A stretch of 64,000 nucleotides of DNA from Candidatus Bathyarchaeia archaeon (GTDB lineage Archaea; Thermoproteota; Bathyarchaeia; Bathyarchaeales; DTEX01), in NCBI GenBank assembly GCA_038817885.1, contig JAWAZE010000004.1, positions 13,509-77,508 on the forward strand, read 5' to 3'. Positions 19,104 through 29,776 of the stretch are shown piece by piece. Made by a program: the position numbers and the translations under genes. The notes under the pieces are model-generated. The model was given only the letters and a program-made list of their open reading frames with translations. It did not search any database and was not told the origin of the DNA. Position 1 is the stretch's first letter. Each line of letters begins with the position of its first letter.

Positions 19104-19181
19104 AGCGGGGTGGGGTAGCCAGGGTAACCCGCTGGGCTCATAACCCAGAGATCGGACGTTCAAATCGTCCCCCCGCTACCA
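19104..19181 (+). tRNA. tRNA-Met initiator (CAT)
   Basis: AGCGGGG acceptor with A1-U72 pair, consecutive G-C pairs in anticodon stem (CTGGG/CCCAG), TTCAAAT T-loop, encoded CCA. Confidence 0.95.
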
Positions 19182-19189
19182 TATAAATC

Positions 19190-19700
19190 TTTTCGTACGT
19201 CCGCCCGCGGATGAGAGGACGTATAACTCCCCATATTAAGTCTTTTTCAGACTTCTCTTTCCCTTCGAGTTGCTTAAGTTTCTCGCGCATTTTCTCCAGC
19301 CTCTCTGCAACCCGCCTCTTCTTAGGCTATTGCTTTGCCTTTTCTATTATCGCCTTGATGTTCTCTTCCAATGCTATGTGCCATGCCTGTTTTTTAATGT
19401 TCTCGAGGCTGAATAATTCAAAGAGCCGCTTTTCAGTCTCTTTTATGTCTAAGCTTTCCCTCTTGAATGGCAAGTCCACGTTCGCCAAAATACTATTGAG
19501 GGTTGTTGTAAATATGGTATCAGCCAGTCTCCTATATGCTCGTAGAGCTTCTCGTTCACGGCCTCGCCTATTTTTATCGCCTCCCTCAACATTTCTTCCG
19601 CGCTCTTTTTGCCTCCCCTCTCCTCACCCCCAACCTCCTTGAACGCGGAGAAGACGGAATCCAAAAAGGAGTAGATCAACATTTGTTTGATGCAATCCAT
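19190..19700 (-). pseudogene. Fragmented hypothetical coiled-coil protein of the element
   Basis: Helical, Lys/Glu-rich reading continues across a frameshift and a stop (…EKRLFELFSLENIKKQAWHIALEENIKAIIEKAKQ*…). Confidence 0.35.
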
Positions 19701-19719
19701 GTTAAAGTCAATAAAATTG

Positions 19720-20726
19720 ATGAAAGCGGCCGTTCTCTTTGAAAATTCGTTGCGCGCAACGATGTTTTCGCCATTCAGCAAGCTAAGGGAGGAGGCCATG
19801 TTAAGGTTGAGGCTCCCCTAACACTGGAGGCTGTTAGGAAGCATTTGGAGGGGAGGCGGACGATAGGCGTCTACCAGTTAAGCGTGGACAGCCGCGTTAA
19901 ATGGCTTTGCTTCGACTCGGATCCGGAGAAGCTGAGCAAGCCGGAGGAGACTGCCAGGCGGATCCTAGGGGTTTGCCTCGAGGCGGTTAAGGGTAAGGAT
20001 GGAACTGAGAGGCCAAGGGTCTGGAGCCATAGCCTGTTGCTTGAGACAAGCCGCTACCCCGATCCAAGCTATCACGTCTGGATACTTTTCCTTACTCCAG
20101 TCCCTGCGAGGGTGGCGCGTTGGCTCGGTTTTAGGCTGCTTGGGCTGGCCGGCTTAAGCCCCCAGCATGTTGAGGTCTTCCCGAAGCAGGATGCGGTCAG
20201 CGATATATTACCTTATGGTAATTTGGTTAAGCTGCCTCTCGGCTTGCATCAGGTTGAACGGAAGTGGAGCCGCTTCCTTGACTTCAGAACATTCGAACCT
20301 CTCCTAAGCGATGTTCTCCTCGAAAAGATTGGCCTCAGCTTCATGGAAGCCGACATTGAGCGGATCGCAAGCATGAAGGATGTGTGTGTCCAGGTTAGGT
20401 TTGAGGGTGGTTCTCAGCCAGCCTCCCTTGCTGAAGAGCCGCTTACACAGAGCGAGAGGGAGTTCTGTGTGAGCTTCCTCTACAAATTATGGGTTCCGGG
20501 TTATAGGAATCAAGTTGAGATGGCTTTTCTCGGATGGTGCATTAAGAACGGGGTTCCCTATGAGGATGCAAGGTGGATCATTGAGGAGATTGTTAGGCGG
20601 AGGAACGATGAGGAGACTTCTGAGCGCCTTCGCCTTGTCGATTACCACAACCGCGTCCACTTGGGTAGGAGGTTAAAAGGGTTATCCGGCCTAAAGGAGG
20701 CGGTTTTGGAGGCCTTGATGAGATGA
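19720..20726 (+). CDS. Archaeo-eukaryotic primase-polymerase (plasmid/element Rep type), 1-nt frameshift near 19743
   Basis: MKAAVLFE/KFVARNDVFAIQ...PLT...HLEGRRTIGVY...WLCFDSD...YHVWI...EVFPKQ...GNLVKLPLG; helical C-terminal domain. Confidence 0.8.
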
Positions 20727-21598
20727 ACGAGCGAATAGAGGCGCTAAAAACATTAGATAACATTTTGGAAGCCAAAACTCAGGGGTTGATCTTCGAGGAG
20801 GAAGGCAAGCTCAAAATAGGTGAGATCCAAATGAGTGAGCGTTGGATAATAGTTCCGTTCAAGCAGGAAATCGACCTAACTAAGCCTGACGAGTGCGTAG
20901 CCATAGATATCAATGAGACCAATATAACAGCTGTAGATTCTTCTGGAAACTGCGTGAAGATAGACGCATCTAAGCTTAGGACCATCTATGAAGCTTACAT
21001 GAACAAACTCAAGCGGATCCAAAGGATTGGGAATTCGAAGGTAAAGAAAAGACTCTATACCAAATACTCAAGCAGATGGAGGTGTAAGATTCGTGATTTG
21101 CTCCATAAACTCACCAAAGCGCTTTCAAAGTTTACAAGAGGCAAAACGCTTATAATGGAGGACCTGAAGAACATAAGGAACAGCATAAATCGAAGGGTTA
21201 AACGGTACAACAGGTTTAGCGGGCGAATCCAGCCAGTCTCTTTAAGAAGCAGAAACCTTAAGCGCAGGCTGAATATGTGGAACTTCAGAAAGATTCTGTT
21301 CTTACTTGAGTATAAGCATAAATTAAATGGCTTCGACGTAGTTTACCTCAACCCATACAAAACCTCAAGCTCATGCTCCAGATGCGGAGGAAAAATAGCT
21401 CCAATGGAGAAAACCTGTCCAAAATGCGGTTTAGACAGGGATATAAACGCTTGTTTAAACATGCTCAAGATGTGGCGAGGTTCAGGCTCCGCCGAAAGCC
21501 TCTCTGTGAGCGTAATGAAGCTGGGGTGTCAAGGCTTATATGCCGATGAGGTGAACCCAGCAGAGCTGAGGGGGAAGTCGAATTTTTCGACAGCCTGA
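20723..21598 (+). CDS. tnpB: TnpB/IS200-IS605 family RNA-guided nuclease, N-terminally truncated
   Basis: RuvC-I AIDIN, RuvC-II IMEDL, Zn finger CSRC...CPKC, RuvC-III DRDINA. Confidence 0.85.
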   Translation: MNERIEALKTLDNILEAKTQGLIFEEEGKLKIGEIQMSERWIIVPFKQEIDLTKPDECVAIDINETNITAVDSSGNCVKIDASKLRTIYEAYMNKLKRIQRIGNSKVKKRLYTKYSSRWRCKIRDLLHKLTKALSKFTRGKTLIMEDLKNIRNSINRRVKRYNRFSGRIQPVSLRSRNLKRRLNMWNFRKILFLLEYKHKLNGFDVVYLNPYKTSSSCSRCGGKIAPMEKTCPKCGLDRDINACLNMLKMWRGSGSAESLSVSVMKLGCQGLYADEVNPAELRGKSNFSTA

Positions 21599-21621
21599 TT
21601 TTCTGTCTATGAGAATCTTCC

Positions 21622-22112
21622 TTAGTATCCCAAGGTTACAAGAGCTTGCGGACCATTGTAAACCATAACTGTTTGGCTGATTATATCTCTGCTCAGTAAC
21701 ACCTTATATATCGTTGATTATCCAGTCTAACCGAGATCACGCGCACATTGTCAATGATTATTCTGGGGATATTTTGTGGAAAATTGGGATCAGAAATTGA
21801 TGGAATGACAAGCTTAACCATGTATACTTGCGCCCTTGAAACTCCTGAGGGAGTTGATAGACTAGCTATTCCAATAGGTGGATACTGAAGGGTTCTGAGA
21901 AGATTTCCGTCTACGCCAGTAATAGATGCACCTGTATCCAGTAAAGCATGTTGTAAGGTGGCGGATTTAATGCTGACATTATGACTTTTAGCCCACGTAT
22001 CAACGATAGAGGGAGGCAGAACATCAACACTTATTTGCGGCCCGAGAACAACAAGAGCTTGCGGATCAAACTGTCTTTGATTGCTATGAAAAGCTATGTT
22101 GATTACTGGCAT
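21622..22112 (-). pseudogene. Retropepsin-like aspartyl protease, frameshifted near the 3' end
   Basis: ALLDTGAS active site; C-terminal YKVLLSRDII...YNGPQALVTLGY is in another frame after a TA dinucleotide insertion at ~21716-21721. Confidence 0.8.
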
Positions 22113-22131
22113 AATGTTGCCTCATCCTACT

Positions 22132-22377
22132 CTAAAACGTGATGGATAGCAATCCATAGGTGTATGAGGGTAATTCTTCTACTTTTTCTTCCCGCGTAAT
22201 ACGCTTAATTAAGACGGGAACATAACCATACTTCTGGAGCACATCCCCAAGAGCTTCCGCCTCATTATCATAAATACCGATAACCTTCTCATCCTTAATG
22301 GCAACAACCTTATTCTCATACTTCTTAAGTAACTCCCCCTTCATCCTTTCATAAACTTCCAGCTCTTTAACCAGCAT
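22132..22377 (-). CDS. DUF5678-like small protein
   Basis: ELLKKYENKVVAIKDEKVIGIYDNEAEAL...PVLIKRI pattern; directly upstream of the aspartyl protease. Confidence 0.75.
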   Translation of the reverse strand: MLVKELEVYERMKGELLKKYENKVVAIKDEKVIGIYDNEAEALGDVLQKYGYVPVLIKRITREEKVEELPSYTYGLLSITF

Positions 22378-22500
22378 AACCTCGCCCACAAACACGCACC
22401 CTATATAACACTTATGATACATAGAGCATTATGAATTTTTCTTGGTTTTCAGCCAAGAAAAACATATATTATGTTTCGTGCTCCATAAAACTCCTTAGGC

Positions 22501-23450
22501 CTACTTGATGAGTCTCTCGAATGCCTTGCGTATCTCGCTTATCTGCTTCTTTAATTCGTTTCTAAGTTCCTTGTTTTCTTCCTCGAGTTGGCTTATCCGC
22601 TCCCTCGCCTCGTGATTCATGATTTTTATGGTCGGAGTCTCCTTGAGGAAAGTTACGGCCGGCAGAACCTTGAGGTACTCGTTTCTAAGTCACTCAATAT
22701 TACTTATGCAGAAGTCGTATAGGCTTTCTACGCCAAACCTTGTTAGGCTGTGTCCCAGGAAGGCTTCGCTTGCCATCCCGTCAACCCCGCTTATTGAGCA
22801 GGCCGTCTTAAAGAACTTCCTCAGGGCGTGGATACGCGTGTTATAACGGACCGCGTTGCTGTTTACACTCTTTTCTCCCCCAACCTTATATATGCCCTTT
22901 ATTGGAACCGGACGCATATCCAAGCCAGCCTTGCTGAATAATCCGCGCCACAGGTTTTCAAACCTCCTGTCCGATAGGGGACGCTTCCCCCTTTCGGTTG
23001 CAAAGACCGGGCTCTCAGGCGTAAGATGCTCCCCTCCTTATTCAAACTCTCTGGGATCTCAACCGCATAACACGGCAAATCTATGTTGAAGATATCATCC
23101 CGAAAATGCTTTAATTGGAGACCGAGACAGGCGCTAAGCCTGAAGTCTCCGCTCGCCATAGCGCATATAATTGCCTTCTCCCTAAGCTCAGCCACCTTAA
23201 GAAGCCGGATAATCTCTTCCTTGCTCAGGACATCACGCTTAAGGAGGGGCTTAGGTGGCCCGAACTTCCGCCTAAACTCCCTTGTAATCTCCCGCCCCAC
23301 CCTATCAACTCCTCGCACTCCATTCTCAACCAGCTAAGCCCTTATGCCTGGAAGCCAGCCCCAAGCCGTTTTTGGAGCTAGGCGATCCTTAGCCCACGTG
23401 AAGAAGTTGCTGAACTTCATGGCAATTTCATCCTCGCTAAGCGGAGGTTA
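22501..23450 (-). pseudogene. Tyrosine recombinase/integrase pseudogene
   Basis: REKAIICAMASGDFRLS, RIHALRKFF, AFLGH, LY motifs and C-terminal coiled coil; two premature stops, a frameshift near 23030 and no N-terminus. Confidence 0.85.
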
Positions 23451-23481
23451 AAAAGAAAGTAGAGAAGGAAAAAGGGCGCTG

Positions 23482-23511
23482 GTTTGTCTGTGGCGCCGCC
23501 GGACGGACTCG
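23482..23511 (-). repeat. att-like 30-bp direct repeat of the tRNA-Asn 3' end (identical to 28521-28550)
   Basis: GTTTGTCTGTGGCGCCGCCGGACGGACTCG occurs exactly at 23482-23511 and 28521-28550. Confidence 0.95.
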
Positions 23512-23601: not shown

Positions 23602-25269
23602 TTATTTTATTCTCACAACATTATTCCTTTCTACTCTCAGTATTATTGGAAATAAATTTTCAAATACTACTTTGACTTTATCGTTGGGCGTTTCACTAAT
23701 GAGGAATAAGGATATAATCTTATGGGAGGACGCAAGCTCTATAGCGCTTCTTGTAAATCTATAAGCTCTCCTAAACCCTATAGAATAGATTAAGTCTGTA
23801 AGATCATCCACAATTAATGAATCCATGTTTTTTATAGCTAGAGAAATATCTCCAAGCAAATAAACTAGATCATAAATGGGTAACTCGAATTCGCGATATG
23901 ATAAAGCGGTTTTCTTAGCAACCTCTGATGATAGATAAAAGATATGTACTTGTTCACTAGGCAAATGCTCTAGTATCTTCGAGCCTCTTCTAGTAAATAC
24001 TGTTAGCTCCTCGGAGTTAGCTAAAACCTCACTAATATAGAGCTTAACTATATCTTCATACTTCTCTGAAGGGCTTATCTCCATCAAAATGGGTTTTCCA
24101 AACAAGTCCTTATGCGAAAGACCAAGGAAGCGCGAAAATCCATCAAGGTGGTCCTCAGAAAAGCCTTTGGGTAGGAAAACAGCTCGAAATCTGCCATTTG
24201 CTATCTTATTAATCAACCTATTTTTCTTCAAGAAGATCTCATGAGACTTCAGCAGTACAATATTTTCGCTCTCAATAATTGGAAATATGTCGTTCCAAAA
24301 ATTTATCAGATCATCTATTATTACAAATGGTAATTTCCCTTCTTCGATCTTTTCCAGCGTCTTATCTATGATTTTGGTCAGTTGAGAACTATCAATCTCT
24401 TCTTTAATAACTATTTTTCCACCTGAAATTTCCACTTTTTCGTTTATTCCGATTTCCAGCAAATATCTGTCATATTTAAGGTAATGTTGACCTAAGATAT
24501 CCTTTTGCAGTGAATCGAAGACTTTTTGAAGAAACAAAGAGACGCTCTCATGTAATCCTATTGGCAGCGTTAGGGAGTATATTTCCTCTTTTCTCTCTTC
24601 AAGTAATATACTATATGTTAGTATACTCAGCCCTATAGTTATGGTGACACCACCCAGAGGGACAGTTTCAGGAAAGATATATAAGATGATGTTTGAAATC
24701 GTAAAACCAAAAAGGAAAAACAGGCTGAACCCTAAGAATATCAACTTATATTTTCTCTTAATAAGTTGTGACCTGCTGCCCTTAATTGGCTTTAATATCC
24801 AGATATAGTTTAATAACCCGTAAATTATATAAAACAACATTAGTAATAAAAAGATTGGATAGGGCTCCCCTAACGTAAAAATATATGACCAACCATGTTC
24901 CGTCCAAAGTACCTTAATGGGCAAAAATGGTACACCAAATATGAAGAAGACAATATTAGGCACGATCGCTATTAAGGTGTGTATCATTTTCCCATTTTGA
25001 AGGAACAGAATCGTGAGGAAAATCATTGAAAACGTTAATGAAGCAAAGCCTGTGCTTATCTTAAAGGATATTTCAGATAGAAATTCGTTAGGAGCATTTC
25101 TATGGAGAAAAATTAAGAATTGCCATAGGGCTAGAAAAATTGAGAATGACATGAAAAATTTTGATGGAATAGAATAATGACTTTTGCGAAGAACATAGGT
25201 TCCTAGCATAAGGGATAAAGTTCCTGCTACAATATACTGACTTGTAATAGGAACAAAGTGCCACTCCAT
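23602..25269 (-). CDS. Membrane sensor: N-terminal 7TM (HisKA_7TM-like) domain plus C-terminal inactive KaiC/RecA-fold (DUF835-like) domain
   Basis: About 7 hydrophobic segments in the first ~225 aa; C-terminal LIVDDLTDLIYSIG...FENLFPIIL pattern without Walker A; no His-kinase H-box. Confidence 0.7.
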   Translation of the reverse strand: MEWHFVPITSQYIVAGTLSLMLGTYVLRKSHYSIPSKFFMSFSIFLALWQFLIFLHRNAPNEFLSEISFKISTGFASLTFSMIFLTILFLQNGKMIHTLIAIVPNIVFFIFGVPFLPIKVLWTEHGWSYIFTLGEPYPIFLLLMLFYIIYGLLNYIWILKPIKGSRSQLIKRKYKLIFLGFSLFFLFGFTISNIILYIFPETVPLGGVTITIGLSILTYSILLEERKEEIYSLTLPIGLHESVSLFLQKVFDSLQKDILGQHYLKYDRYLLEIGINEKVEISGGKIVIKEEIDSSQLTKIIDKTLEKIEEGKLPFVIIDDLINFWNDIFPIIESENIVLLKSHEIFLKKNRLINKIANGRFRAVFLPKGFSEDHLDGFSRFLGLSHKDLFGKPILMEISPSEKYEDIVKLYISEVLANSEELTVFTRRGSKILEHLPSEQVHIFYLSSEVAKKTALSYREFELPIYDLVYLLGDISLAIKNMDSLIVDDLTDLIYSIGFRRAYRFTRSAIELASSHKIISLFLISETPNDKVKVVFENLFPIILRVERNNVVRIK

Positions 25270-25273
25270 ACCT

Positions 25274-26899
25274 TTAAATGGCCTCCAGTAATTCTGCTAT
25301 TCTCTTTCTTTGAGGAGGTATTATTTTTGGAGGCTTTATCTGCCCTATTTCCGCACCTTCCTTCACCATTTTCATCGAATATCGTAAGAATGATCCCTCC
25401 CTCAAATACTTAACTTTGATAATATCACCTGGCTTTTTTATAGAGAAGTCTTTTACAAAATTTTGAAAGTCGGGAAGCGTCTTAAAGAGCGCATCGAATA
25501 TAATTTTTGCAGTCTCTTTCTCCGAATATCTCCACGGTCTCTCCATAAGAATATATAATTGCTCGTCTCCCTCATGGATTTCCTTTGTAACTGCCCACTT
25601 CTCAAAATACTTTAACCCAGCTTCCCTTAGAGCGTTTAAAAAGGCTCTTTCAGTAATCCTAAAGTACCCATAGAAATCTAACAATTCATTAACTCTAGCT
25701 TTAAAGATGAAGTACGGCATACAATCATCTCTAAAATCAACAACAGTTAAGAGGTCGCCCATCTTATATCTAATAAGCATGGATTGTATTGAAGTTACTA
25801 CCAGCTCATATGTTTCTCCTCTCTTAAGTTCGTCTATTTTTTTCACATTACCTTTTTCATCAATGAATTCATAGTAACCAGTCTTTAAAATTGGAACTAA
25901 GCATTCTTTTCTATCCGGAGGACCACACATAAGTACTGGAAACTCAGTAGAAGCATATACGTTAGTTGGCTCAACTCCAAACTCTTGAATAAAAAGACTC
26001 TTATATGATTCTATATTCACACCAGCGACACTTATACCTTTAAGTGGTAAAAGATCTCTCAGTCTCTTGTACTTTTTACCAAAATGAGATAGAAGCCATC
26101 TAAATGACATATAGATTTTTGCAAGTCCAAAGTTCAGTGACTTACAGTACTCCCTAAATATTTCTGTTTTATTCTTTAAATACCTGCATACTAGATAAAA
26201 AAAGGCAGTTTCCCCTCCGGCAACAGTAGGTTTTGCCCCTCTTTCAATTTCTTTCAGAATTATCCATAACTTTTTGCCTAAATTAGTTTCCTCCATAACC
26301 TCTGGCGGGGGAATCATACTAAAATATTTACTGCTTAACAAAACGCTCCATCCGGAAAGGTAGGGCAGTGGGGCAGCAAGTTGTAGCCCTCTTTCTCCTT
26401 CTCTAATCTTAGTCTCTCCCCAACTTTCGCTGCATGTCAAAGCTGCCGCCGTTAACAAGTTCTCTTCGAAAATCTTTAAGTTAGTAGCACCATGAACTAT
26501 CCATTTAGGTTCCCCCGTTGTGCCACTTGTCTTTGCAGCGAAACCAAAATCATCAATCATCCATCCATCTACAGTAGGCTTTAGCTCAGCAAATAGCTTA
26601 GAGTAGTAGTCGAAAAAGCGCTCTCTTCCTCTAGGTTTTCTCGCAATCATTGTCTCTATTTTTAAGGCAAACTCCTGTAAAACAGGATAATCTCCATAGG
26701 TTGTTAGCGGTATATCTTCAAACTTTTCAATTTTCACACCATACTTCTTCATCAAATATTGCGCCGTCTTCGTCTTCTTCCATTTCTCGAAATTTTCCTT
26801 GATAATCCCCTCGGAGTATGCAATTTGCTCGAAAAATGGTTTTTCAAGAAAGCTGCAATACTTGTTCCATATCTCCTTCTCGTTCATCATCGCTCTCAC
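25274..26899 (-). CDS. GH3 family acyl-acid amido synthetase (adenylate-forming)
   Basis: IPLTTYGDY, KTSGTTGEPKW (motif I), YASTE (motif II), GYYEFI, YELVVT, RYKMGD (motif III), GQIKPPKI. Confidence 0.88.
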   Translation of the reverse strand: MRAMMNEKEIWNKYCSFLEKPFFEQIAYSEGIIKENFEKWKKTKTAQYLMKKYGVKIEKFEDIPLTTYGDYPVLQEFALKIETMIARKPRGRERFFDYYSKLFAELKPTVDGWMIDDFGFAAKTSGTTGEPKWIVHGATNLKIFEENLLTAAALTCSESWGETKIREGERGLQLAAPLPYLSGWSVLLSSKYFSMIPPPEVMEETNLGKKLWIILKEIERGAKPTVAGGETAFFYLVCRYLKNKTEIFREYCKSLNFGLAKIYMSFRWLLSHFGKKYKRLRDLLPLKGISVAGVNIESYKSLFIQEFGVEPTNVYASTEFPVLMCGPPDRKECLVPILKTGYYEFIDEKGNVKKIDELKRGETYELVVTSIQSMLIRYKMGDLLTVVDFRDDCMPYFIFKARVNELLDFYGYFRITERAFLNALREAGLKYFEKWAVTKEIHEGDEQLYILMERPWRYSEKETAKIIFDALFKTLPDFQNFVKDFSIKKPGDIIKVKYLREGSFLRYSMKMVKEGAEIGQIKPPKIIPPQRKRIAELLEAI

Positions 26900-27591
26900 A
26901 CCTCAGCCTCCGGATAAGGCAGTATCTCTATTCCGATATTTTTTGAGATAGTGTAGTAATAGTACCTTAGGTTTAGCTCCGTCCCCCGCATCTTAAGAAC
27001 TATCAATCTCCTTCGGAGTAAGTTTCCTCGGGGTCTCATTTCGAGTACAATTATCCCGTCAGATAAAAACTCTTCAACGCCAGTACCAAGAGTATTCCCA
27101 CCCCAAGGAATCTCAGTCGTTAGTAACGTTGTGCACCCCAATCTCCGCAATGCTTTCTGAAGAATTGATATCATTATTCTTATTTCAGCTGTGCTCCCTA
27201 GTGAGGTAGTTAAGGCCGTTATAGAGTCGATAACTAGCCTCTCAGGCTCTAAGGCTTTAACAGTTTTAATTATTTCCTCAATTATAATTTCTATGTTTTC
27301 AGCCCCCTTTGCAGAAATAAAGTCTAAGATCGACACTAACTGCTTTTTCTGAAGGCTCTCAAAATCCCATCCAAGAGTAAGCATGTTATCTTTAAAGAAG
27401 TCAGCACTTTCCTCAAATGTTACAAAAACACCTTTTTCCCCGTATTTTATGGCTCCAAAGTATATAAATTGAGCCGCAAATATAGTTTTACCAGTCCCGG
27501 GGCCTCCAGCTACTAGGATGGTACTCCCTCTTGGAAAACCACCCCGCAGTATTTCGTCAAGTTTCTCGATTCCAGTCAGAACCTTCTTCAT
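26896..27591 (-). CDS. Single-domain KaiC/RAD55-like ATPase
   Basis: TGIEKLDEILRGG, GGPGTGKT, TFEES, VIDSIT, LLTTE, DGIIVL, KMRG. Confidence 0.92.
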   Translation of the reverse strand: MKKVLTGIEKLDEILRGGFPRGSTILVAGGPGTGKTIFAAQFIYFGAIKYGEKGVFVTFEESADFFKDNMLTLGWDFESLQKKQLVSILDFISAKGAENIEIIIEEIIKTVKALEPERLVIDSITALTTSLGSTAEIRIMISILQKALRRLGCTTLLTTEIPWGGNTLGTGVEEFLSDGIIVLEMRPRGNLLRRRLIVLKMRGTELNLRYYYYTISKNIGIEILPYPEAEV

Positions 27592-27765
27592 CTACTTTTC
27601 ACCATCAAAATATAACTTATCTCATCCAAACAAAATACCTTTTTATATGGTGACTAAAAATCTTTCGCCGGCATCTCTATATGAAAGATCCATCCTTATA
27701 CTGATGTTCTCAGACCCTTTGAACCAAAATGTCCAGAGATTTCGCTCGGAGTCTCTATGAAGACG

Positions 27766-28158
27766 TTATTCACTTTTAAATCCATCTATACCACGTGTAA
27801 CCATGTATAATTCGACTGCTTTCCTTAAAAACAAGCGCATCTCTTCAGCAGATTTTTGATCGCCACTACACATAAGCTCTAGGAAAAGATCAGGACTTAT
27901 GTTTGAACCAAGCTCTTTGTTAATACCATCTACTAAAATGTTGATTAAAATTTTTGTTCCTATACCAAGAATTTTCTTTGTGACAGAGTAAAAGGTTCTC
28001 GGGTCTTTCCAAAGAACCTCAAATGGGTCACGCTCAAAATCCTTCTCCAAAAAGAAGAGTAACGCCCTTCCAGCAGATTCACCTAATAGGGAATAAATAC
28101 TTTGCCTACAAACTCTACCAACAGTATTAATAATAAGTTCCTCGCTATCACTACTCAA
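27766..28158 (-). CDS. Small helical protein (DUF3227/NitrOD5-like), first gene of the cassette
   Basis: LLGESAGRALLFFL...DPRTFYSVTKKILGIGTKIL pattern; family assignment by resemblance only. Confidence 0.55.
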   Translation of the reverse strand: MSSDSEELIINTVGRVCRQSIYSLLGESAGRALLFFLEKDFERDPFEVLWKDPRTFYSVTKKILGIGTKILINILVDGINKELGSNISPDLFLELMCSGDQKSAEEMRLFLRKAVELYMVTRGIDGFKSE

Positions 28159-28529
28159 AATTCCACCCTAAAATAATTTTTCTTCTACCCTCTATATATT
28201 TATTACTTGTGACATAGTTAAAAATAGATACCTTTATAGTAAGTCCAAAAATAATCTGAAATTATTGGACCGTTCGCTGGGGATATCCCCGCATATCCCG
28301 CTTTAAGAGTGGTTTTTAATGGTGCAGGAATTTAGCCCAGCAGACGGGAAGCATCTTTATCCCAAGGTTTCATTAATCTTGAGCTTCTACGTAAAAGACT
28401 TAGCCATAATTAGCTTGCCGGGCTAGCAGTTTCATTGAGAAGATGCGCGGACGGCGAGACTATACGCGACTTTAATGGCATCAAATTATATATCATTTAG
28501 AAGCGCAGGTGAATAGAGATGTTTGTCTG

Positions 28530-28638
28530 TGGCGCCGCCGGACGGACTCGAACCGTCGACCCACGGGTTAACAGCCTCAGCCTCCCGGAGTGCATTGCCT
28601 CCGGGGCCCGCTGCTCTACCTAACTGAGCTACGGCGGC
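28530..28638 (-). tRNA. tRNA-Asn (GTT) with 32-nt intron at a non-canonical position (~29/30)
   Basis: GCCGCCG acceptor, GCGGG/CCCGT stem, CTGTTAA loop, TTCGAGT T-loop, CCA; hairpin insert at ~28577-28608. Confidence 0.92.
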
Positions 28639-29059: not shown

Positions 29060-29776
29060 CTGATAAGGTTTAAGTCTAAATCTGATAGGCTTCTGGTCGT
29101 TGATGAGGACCACATCGTTGTCTTTGATGATTTTAGAAATGTTAGGTTAGAGGATGTTGATCTAATTTTTGCTGATCCACCATTTGGAATAGAGTTCAGG
29201 GGTAACCTCGCCACATATCATAGGACGCCAGACGCCCTATCATATGTTGAGGTGCCTAAAGAAGAGTATCCCAAGTTTATTAGGGACCTTGCTGAATGGT
29301 GTTATAGGGCGCTTAAACCAAATGGAAGCATGTGGCTCCTCTCAGGCTGGAACAACCTGAGATACGTATTAGATGCTGTTGAGGATGTTGGCTTTATACA
29401 ATTAAATCATGTCATATGGAAGTACCAGTTTGGAGTATTTACTAAGAGGAGGCTTGTTACATCACATTATCATCTGCTTCTCCTCGTTAAGGACGTGAAT
29501 GATTACACCTTCAATAAGCCTGAGCACTATCCAGAAGATGTATGGATAATTAAGAGACCATACCATCGTGGCGCGGAGACGGCTGGGAATGAACTGCCGG
29601 ATGAGCTAGTGGAGAAGTGCATTAAGACGTCATCTAATCCAGGAGATCTGGTCGTAGATCCTGTTCTCGGCTCAGGGACGACGATGCGTGTATGCCTAAA
29701 ACTTAACAGAAAATGTTTGGGGATAGAAGTAAACCCACAGCTGGAGAAAAGAATAAGGGAGAAATTGAACGTGTGA
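29060..29776 (+). CDS. Orphan site-specific DNA methyltransferase (N6A/N4C, beta class); probable CTG start
   Basis: DLIFADPPF (motif IV) lies in frame upstream of the called ORF start; VVDPVLGSGTT (motif I); GGTGA precedes CTG at 29060. Confidence 0.85.
   Translation: MIRFKSKSDRLLVVDEDHIVVFDDFRNVRLEDVDLIFADPPFGIEFRGNLATYHRTPDALSYVEVPKEEYPKFIRDLAEWCYRALKPNGSMWLLSGWNNLRYVLDAVEDVGFIQLNHVIWKYQFGVFTKRRLVTSHYHLLLLVKDVNDYTFNKPEHYPEDVWIIKRPYHRGAETAGNELPDELVEKCIKTSSNPGDLVVDPVLGSGTTMRVCLKLNRKCLGIEVNPQLEKRIREKLNV

Follow-up and report, generated by a model that had tools for sequence, protein, structure and literature searches.

We analysed a 64,000-nucleotide (nt) window, meaning the whole stretch of DNA under study, from a Candidatus Bathyarchaeia archaeon with a genome of 1.52 Mb that is 93.6% complete. 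The window holds a cassette of four genes, which encode a GH3-family acyl-adenylating amido synthetase, a KaiC-like ATPase, a polytopic membrane receptor and a small helical protein of 130 amino acids (aa); the GH3 gene and the receptor gene form the conserved core of a putative signalling module, which is the subject of this report. All four are intact open reading frames on the minus strand, spanning 23602-28158, and they are the entire gene content of the 5,009 bp enclosed by a pair of attachment-site-like (att-like) 30-nt repeats, which confirms the first-pass annotation of four intact co-oriented genes as the sole cargo. The right repeat copy (28521..28550) is the 3' end of an intron-containing tRNA-Asn(GTT) and consists of the last 21 nt of the tRNA plus 9 nt downstream; the left copy (23482..23511) is a perfect (100%) direct repeat of it and marks the left boundary of the cassette. 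The tRNA, which is the insertion target, lies at 28530..28638 on the minus strand, scores 53.9 bits with the Rfam tRNA model and was delimited with ARAGORN using its intron search (intron of 32 nt). The repeat core occurs only twice in the whole genome, and the GC content of the cassette is 37.1% versus 43.7% for the genome.

The GH3 stop codon and the receptor start codon are separated by 4 nt, as had been noted at first pass. The 4-nt overlap between the KaiC and GH3 genes that was noted with it requires a GTG start at 26899. The real junction is probably a gap of 5 nt, with GH3 starting at the ATG at 26890, because the GH3 orthologue in genome G247 (88% identical) begins at the equivalent of this codon, 5 nt past the KaiC stop. 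The small gene and the KaiC gene are 174 nt apart in the window versus 25 nt in G247; the idea that the 174-nt spacer is the remnant of a V4R gene was considered and rejected. The public runs that contain cassette DNA are hot-spring metagenomes. Contigs from other such runs reproduce the cassette region and end at the two repeats, and no empty tRNA site was found at any contig joint in those runs. The cassette contigs are shallower than the flanks, with depths of 13.3 and 10.4 versus 19.0 and 17.9 in one set and 4.0 and 4.1 versus 7.9 and 8.5 in a second, figures that are not a measure of copy number in either set.

The GH3 gene (25274..26899, minus strand) encodes a protein of 541 aa that, judged by fold, Pfam match and motifs, is a GH3 family member as originally proposed. 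It matched GH3_M (PF23571) with 40.8 bits against a cut-off of 23.6, and its structure model, with a predicted local distance difference test (pLDDT) of 83, had JAR1 (4EPL) as best fold match (E 5e-19, TM 0.65). The top ten matches of the fold search were plant GH3 proteins, with PaaK-type acyl-CoA ligases scoring close behind; a profile of the GH3 clade searched against the PDB gave 10 hits, all of them plant GH3 and none PaaK. GH3 enzymes adenylate an acid and then form an amide with an amino acid, and the window protein is predicted to do the same. All three nucleotide-binding motifs are intact (residues 123-132, 315-319 and 376-382) and correspond, at residues 123, 315 and 376, to those given in the available text of PMC12493201. 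Lys522, the adenylation lysine of the C-terminal Lys motif, is invariant among 17 sequences of clade A, the GH3 clade of the window protein, and clade-A proteins have a basic, hydrophobic insert at about residues 250-280. Among longer homologues, the distant P0133 is fused to a PEMT-type methyltransferase domain, and P0104, P0116, P0126 and P0139 have extensions without a Pfam match.

The receptor gene (23602..25269, minus strand) encodes 555 aa, and its assignment draws on a structure model (pLDDT 84), structural matches and the Pfam hits of homologues. Three domains were delimited: a seven-transmembrane (7TM) part at residues 1-227, a helical domain at about 239-365 and an inactive KaiC/DUF835-like domain at 375-555. 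Hydropathy alone gives six membrane segments and the model seven. Residues 1-227 resemble 7TM bundles of the G-protein-coupled receptor (GPCR) type, with a best Z score of 16.0 (root-mean-square deviation, rmsd, 3.9; 215 residues aligned to CD97; 8% identity), where matches of helical bundles up to a Z score of about 13 may be generic; this part is GPCR-like in the model. We do not file the protein as a GPCR: its output is the fused domain, and no heterotrimeric G-protein partner occurs in any viewed locus. Residues 375-555 matched RecA/KaiC folds (Z 14.3, rmsd 2.9, 171 residues aligned to PH0284) and contain no Walker A pattern; on the strength of the model and sequence this tail is an inactivated KaiC/DUF835-like domain, and the earlier description of a 7TM protein with an inactive RecA-fold domain is supported. 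The helical domain, a prediction of the model, matched neither the small-protein nor the V4R profiles. Neither the window receptor nor the 130-aa protein reached a Pfam or NCBIfam cut-off. Among homologues of the receptor, L038 scored 29.5 with HisKA_7TM (PF16927; cut-off 28.6), P0006 also carries this family, for which the window protein gave no hit, and L130 passed the DUF835 cut-off. The inner loops are basic in the model. The tails of receptors from clade A and from the second GH3 clade, clade B, are homologous (hhalign 92%); a cytoplasmic helical domain is common to all clade-A receptors and is lacking in clade B. The predicted complex of GH3 with receptor residues 1-372 scored 0.00, which is evidence neither way. 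Split receptors, with one gene for the membrane part and another for the DUF835/inactive-KaiC part, occur in L188-L190, L208, L047 and L059, and in L047 and L059 the two parts flank GH3.

The KaiC gene (26896..27591, minus strand) encodes a single-domain, CI-type KaiC-like ATPase of 231 aa, whose first-pass identification is upheld by a PF06745 match of 222 bits, by the alignment to solved CI and CII domains and by an intact Walker A, catalytic EE and Arg finger. The Ser/Thr phosphosites of CII are absent, the positions of the CII Ser/Thr pair being taken by CI-type acidic residues, and the circadian clock profile NF006799 scored 177 bits against a cut-off of 408. By its sequence the protein is therefore no circadian clock KaiC, which is characterised by tandem CI-CII domains with phosphosites. 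A role in defence found no support, PADLOC giving weak P-loop hits for KaiC and nothing else.

The small gene (27766..28158, minus strand) has a TTG start and three paralogues in the genome (in the G000 regions C1:2836-4628, C17:22457-24144 and C1:131715-132107), two of them directly before other KaiC genes, and its 130-aa product looks like a general KaiC partner in this host. Those other genes are a two-domain KaiC-like gene of 480 aa near tRNA-Leu and a frameshifted copy of it; the third paralogue stands alone near tRNA-Ser. The nearest named Atlas cluster, at 0.84, is NitrOD5, which is a lead only; with PF11537 (NitrOD5, cut-off 27 bits) the window copy scored 11.2 bits and the best paralogue 18.3 bits, both below the cut-off. 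Outside the window the protein turned up in just two loci (L031 and L171), and its match to the small proteins of the histidine kinase variant described below is weak (30%). Most relatives instead have an HTH-V4R or V4R-like gene upstream of KaiC. The small protein is a local partner that can be replaced, and it does not belong to the conserved core.

The recurrence of the genes was assessed with a GH3 query over 401 genomes of the class, which returned 96 places: 14 in clade A (window included), 61 in clade B and 21 weak hits (E 2.5e-6 or worse) that were dropped, the one fetched (L092) having no GH3 by hidden Markov model. A phylum sample added 16 further places, 15 of them in family f42, in which 14 of 17 genomes match. 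In total 70 genome loci were fetched, 54 from the class search and 16 from the phylum sample, and GH3 directly adjoins a gene for a polytopic receptor in 68 of them (in L062 it is a receptor fragment at a contig end); of the two misses, one locus is cut by a contig end and L048 is a true exception. By coordinates, a receptor lies within 1.3 kb in 58 of the 61 clade-B places, so GH3 without a receptor is rare (3/61, one near a contig start). The metagenome set, made up of the best 79 of 345 confirmed matches, has a receptor in 58 loci and in all 35 that have flanks of at least 600 nt on both sides; the 21 misses all have less than 600 nt or nearly no flank on at least one side. The sources carry names that include Bathyarchaeia, Thermoplasmatota, Hadarchaeum and Thermoproteota.

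The two genes occur in four kinds of orientation (tandem either way, convergent and divergent), often within 30 nt of each other, and the linkage persists past more than 70% sequence divergence, gene inversion and exchange of the output domain. The reverse search, with the N-terminus of the clade-A receptor, found 19 places in 18 of the 401 genomes: 14 adjoin GH3, three run into a contig edge at the point where GH3 would be expected, and the remainder are a solo kinase in G117 and one weak hit. Among 68 near full-length clade-B receptors, 59 are beside GH3 and nine are solo, seven of the latter in genomes that have GH3 elsewhere. The combination seen at first pass therefore recurs in many genomes, and the conserved core is GH3 plus receptor, not four genes; of the four-gene unit first suggested, the GH3-receptor pair and, in the inactive-KaiC variants, KaiC are retained, and the 130-aa protein is not. 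In L168, L169 and L170 one GH3 gene lies between two clade-B receptor genes, and several f22 genomes have two or more GH3-receptor pairs, which suggests several signal channels.

The output of the receptor is exchangeable, since the same 7TM and helical domains end either in inactive KaiC or in HisKA-HATPase. In distant loci HisKA_7TM is joined to GAF-HD-GYP or to GAF-PAS-HisKA, with HTH-REC upstream in the kinase loci, and one clade-A-like locus has a sigma-54 activator upstream; the HD-GYP, GAF-PAS-kinase and sigma-54 loci look bacterial. The relay gene varies with the output: not counting 26 metagenome loci that could not be classed, a KaiC gene is adjacent in 29 of 30 loci with an inactive-KaiC tail (17/18 genome and 12/12 metagenome), in none of 24 with a kinase tail (0/10 and 0/14) and in none of three with HD-GYP. 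The kinase-variant orthologues sit beside REC genes. No REC domain match was found in the host genome (93.6% complete assembly), and for this reason the relay there must, as far as its sequence goes and within the limits of a 94% complete assembly, be kinase-free; HATPase_c gave no candidate at all in the host genome, and the kinase-free statement rests instead on the REC search and our own models. The absence of a histidine kinase, claimed at first for the system as a whole, holds for this variant and this genome and not for the close orthologues fused to HisKA-HATPase. In seven kinase-variant loci (L058, L038, L039, L040, L042, L183 and L199) a REC gene is conserved together with genes for a helical protein of 100 aa and a four-helix membrane protein of 130 aa, the latter convergent on GH3, and a wHTH-TrmB-like gene is near the kinase variant in three checked loci of that set. 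The four-helix membrane gene also follows two inactive-KaiC loci (L172 and L174).

The reading that we judge to have a little over an even chance is that the core is a make-and-sense pair. GH3 would couple a carboxylic acid with an amino acid, the 7TM receptor would bind the resulting acyl-amino-acid amide from the membrane or from outside, and in this variant the receptor's KaiC-like, ATPase-dead tail would relay the signal to the KaiC ATPase encoded next to it and to the small partner of that ATPase, modulating both. We infer that the GH3 product is the ligand, that it exits the cell, and that the inactive KaiC domain contacts KaiC. This reading is favoured because the partner to which GH3 is almost invariably linked has only signalling domains as its outputs, because no metabolic or lipid partner is conserved, and because solo receptors outnumber solo enzymes, which resembles the Legionella lqs system (PMC8023197). 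The signalling circuit proposed at first pass stands as to the identity of its parts and their recurrence, and needed correction as to its core, the absence of a kinase and its mobility.

Several observations weigh against the make-and-sense reading. The neighbourhood of the pair has no conserved acyl-donor or export gene, and the PaaK-type ligases come close behind GH3 in the fold search. Conserved 7TM residues are not enriched on the outside, occupying 16 of 123 outer versus 9 of 99 inner positions in 45 sequences, and outer-face clustering was accordingly rejected. The membrane domains of clade-A and clade-B receptors have no detectable homology (hhalign 4%). Hadarchaeum-type loci with a DUF835 tail have no adjacent KaiC (0/3), and the nine kinase forms make up one clade (support 100, quick tree), so that the output and relay counts reflect few independent events. 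The ligand and the enzyme activity are predictions.

A different use of the same chemistry, which we consider unlikely, is that the receptor senses a free carboxylic acid in the surroundings and GH3 supplies the feedback, removing this acid by conjugation. The plant enzymes GH3.5 and GH3.6, which clear auxin by conjugation, rank among the top structural and profile matches, and no acyl-donor biosynthetic gene travels with the pair. The HTH-V4R or HTH-REC regulators directly upstream in many loci would fit feedback control, but they are equally compatible with autoinduction, and a clearing enzyme should be useful alone, whereas solo GH3 genes are rare and solo receptors commoner.

The nearly absolute linkage, with spacing often below 30 nt, would also suit a GH3 protein that acts as a receptor-bound cytoplasmic subunit, either to report on its substrate or adenylate state or to acylate the receptor itself, with no diffusible signal. 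The helical domain of all clade-A receptors and the clade-A insert of GH3, which could dock on the membrane, fit such an arrangement, which we nevertheless regard as distinctly improbable: the helical domain is missing from clade-B receptors, whose membrane domain differs as well, solo receptors exist, and the convergent and divergent orientations do not suggest translational coupling of subunits.

Of about the same low probability is an enzyme of lipid or general metabolism that serves the membrane or catabolism, making an N-acyl amino lipid in the manner of OlsH or an acyl-CoA in that of PaaK, and that the sensor merely regulates. OlsH is a prokaryotic GH3 with experimental data (PMC12493201), PaaK ligases are near in fold, a UbiA prenyltransferase gene follows the pair in L179 with a similar gene in L180, and the methyltransferase fusion in P0133 points the same way. 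In the viewed loci, however, the surroundings of the pair show no conserved acyltransferase, CoA-pathway or catabolic gene, the PDB profile hits are all GH3, and two Bacteroidota GH3 loci have no nearby match to the receptor models. That the four genes were gathered on an island by chance, at a tRNA-Asn end that is a hot spot with unrelated cargo in relatives, is highly improbable as a whole and is ruled out for GH3, receptor and KaiC by the linkage census, in which the association survives divergence, inversion and output exchange; the small gene alone, which resembles resident paralogues, may fit it.

LuxM/LuxN is a known quorum-sensing pair of synthase and receptor. The Legionella lqsA-lqsR-hdeD-lqsS and Vibrio cqsA/cqsS clusters likewise combine a synthase with a membrane receptor, and Legionella species keep receptors after synthase loss (PMC8023197). 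As in lqs and cqs, the gene for an enzyme forming a small molecule neighbours that for a polytopic membrane sensor, with receiver proteins and a small membrane gene close by (here in the kinase variant), and solo receptors occur. Unlike in those systems, the enzyme is a predicted ATP-dependent GH3 amido synthetase, the sensor is of the HisKA_7TM type, an inactive KaiC domain or HD-GYP may serve as output in place of a kinase, and the signal and any density response are putative. The clustering of synthase and receptor is thus that of quorum sensing, with a presumed cognate relation; by analogy the module would work like a synthase-receptor quorum-sensing cluster, and we do not file it as one, the signal being putative.

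The archaeal GH3 shares the fold, the three nucleotide-binding motifs and the C-terminal Lys motif with plant GH3 proteins (JAR1/GH3.11, GH3.12, GH3.5 and GH3.6), but it is only about 15-17% identical to them and its substrate is putative. In plants, the products of GH3 enzymes are perceived through soluble receptors, COI1 for example, and not through a 7TM protein. The bacterial GH3 OlsH of Singulisphaera acidiphila makes N-acyl ornithine, a membrane lipid, from an operon that includes the acyltransferase OlsI (PMC12493201). The window protein is, like OlsH, a prokaryotic GH3 and is predicted to form an N-acyl amino acid as OlsH does; unlike OlsH, the archaeal enzyme has no OlsI-type acyltransferase conserved beside it. 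The words 'receptor' and 'kinase' do not occur in the main text of PMC12493201.

KaiC-centred archaeal signalling was reportedly proposed by Makarova, Galperin and Koonin in 2017. The single-domain KaiC beside an inactivated KaiC of the DUF835 type and a small helical or V4R partner is reportedly shared with that proposal; GH3 as a fixed input and a sensor that can be rewired to a histidine kinase would be additions to it. GH3 is not mentioned in the main text of PMC5847659, which cites the 2017 work, and the single GH3 mention in the available text of PMC9425974 concerns Flavobacteria. No description of the GH3-receptor pairing was found in the literature searched; the 2017 paper and its supplements, which lay outside that search, may bear on novelty. 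Distinctive of the window are the att-bounded insertion at tRNA-Asn, the small helical protein in place of the V4R partner and a host without a detected receiver domain.

With this module microbes likely produce and perceive a small chemical signal in a manner so far undescribed. A broader proposal, which we put forward tentatively and regard as possible rather than probable, is a widespread undescribed family of archaeal (probably also bacterial) autoinducers, in which GH3 would make an amide like jasmonoyl-isoleucine, a receptor of GPCR fold would read it, KaiC, kinase or c-di-GMP relays would follow, and tRNA-targeted islets would carry the genes. Were this true, cell-cell signalling in archaea would have a synthase-receptor pair defined at the gene level, and the KaiC-hub hypothesis would receive a first defined chemical input. 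Quorum sensing in archaea has for the most part not been explored, and the signal of Haloferax is yet to be defined (PMC13464002, 2026); the GH3-receptor module offers a candidate archaeal synthase along with a candidate receptor. Since the sensor is wired in natural variants to a histidine kinase or to HD-GYP, the ligand should be findable with standard read-outs and could then be used to probe the relay from inactive KaiC to KaiC, a proposed archaeal signalling principle. Hormone-type GH3 chemistry would also enter prokaryotic signalling, the prokaryotic GH3 function found in print, as far as the sources available extend, being lipid synthesis.

No integrase gene lies between the att-like repeats, and the sole integrase-like frame, just beyond the left repeat, is broken by frameshifts and stops. 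Lacking its own integrase, the cassette is an islet that was inserted and not an autonomous element, and an integrase supplied from outside would have placed it at tRNA-Asn; the suggested spread as a mobile cassette thus holds in so far as a past insertion at the tRNA is concerned. GH3 is present in four of 23 genomes of the genus, one of these being a fragment. G247 and G178 carry the genes elsewhere; the regions fetched contain no tRNA, and the GC content of the genes is again below that of the flanks. The tRNA-Asn loci of 14 relatives (10 with at least 1 kb downstream) hold unrelated cargo and none of the cassette genes, and therefore the tRNA-Asn end is an insertion hot spot and the GH3 cassette a lineage-specific cargo. 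Four further loci have copies of the att core outside the tRNA. No viral contig encodes a relative. In the same-genus loci L136, L137, L146 and L147 the tRNA-Asn att sequence borders genes that, judged from N-terminal sequences, are like those of contractile-tail or injection systems.

A decayed integrative element occupies window positions 19200-23460, between tRNA-Met (19104-19181) and the cassette. It contains an AEP primase-polymerase gene that is probably truncated (19845-20726), a TnpB-like gene (20723-21598), an aspartyl-protease-like gene and a DUF5678 gene, as well as the tyrosine-integrase-like frame with frameshifts and stops (about 22520-23450). An N6/N4 DNA methyltransferase gene was found at 29100-29776, beside tRNA-Met; the listed open reading frame is only 174 aa, and an interrupted 5' part may lie in the upstream sequence.

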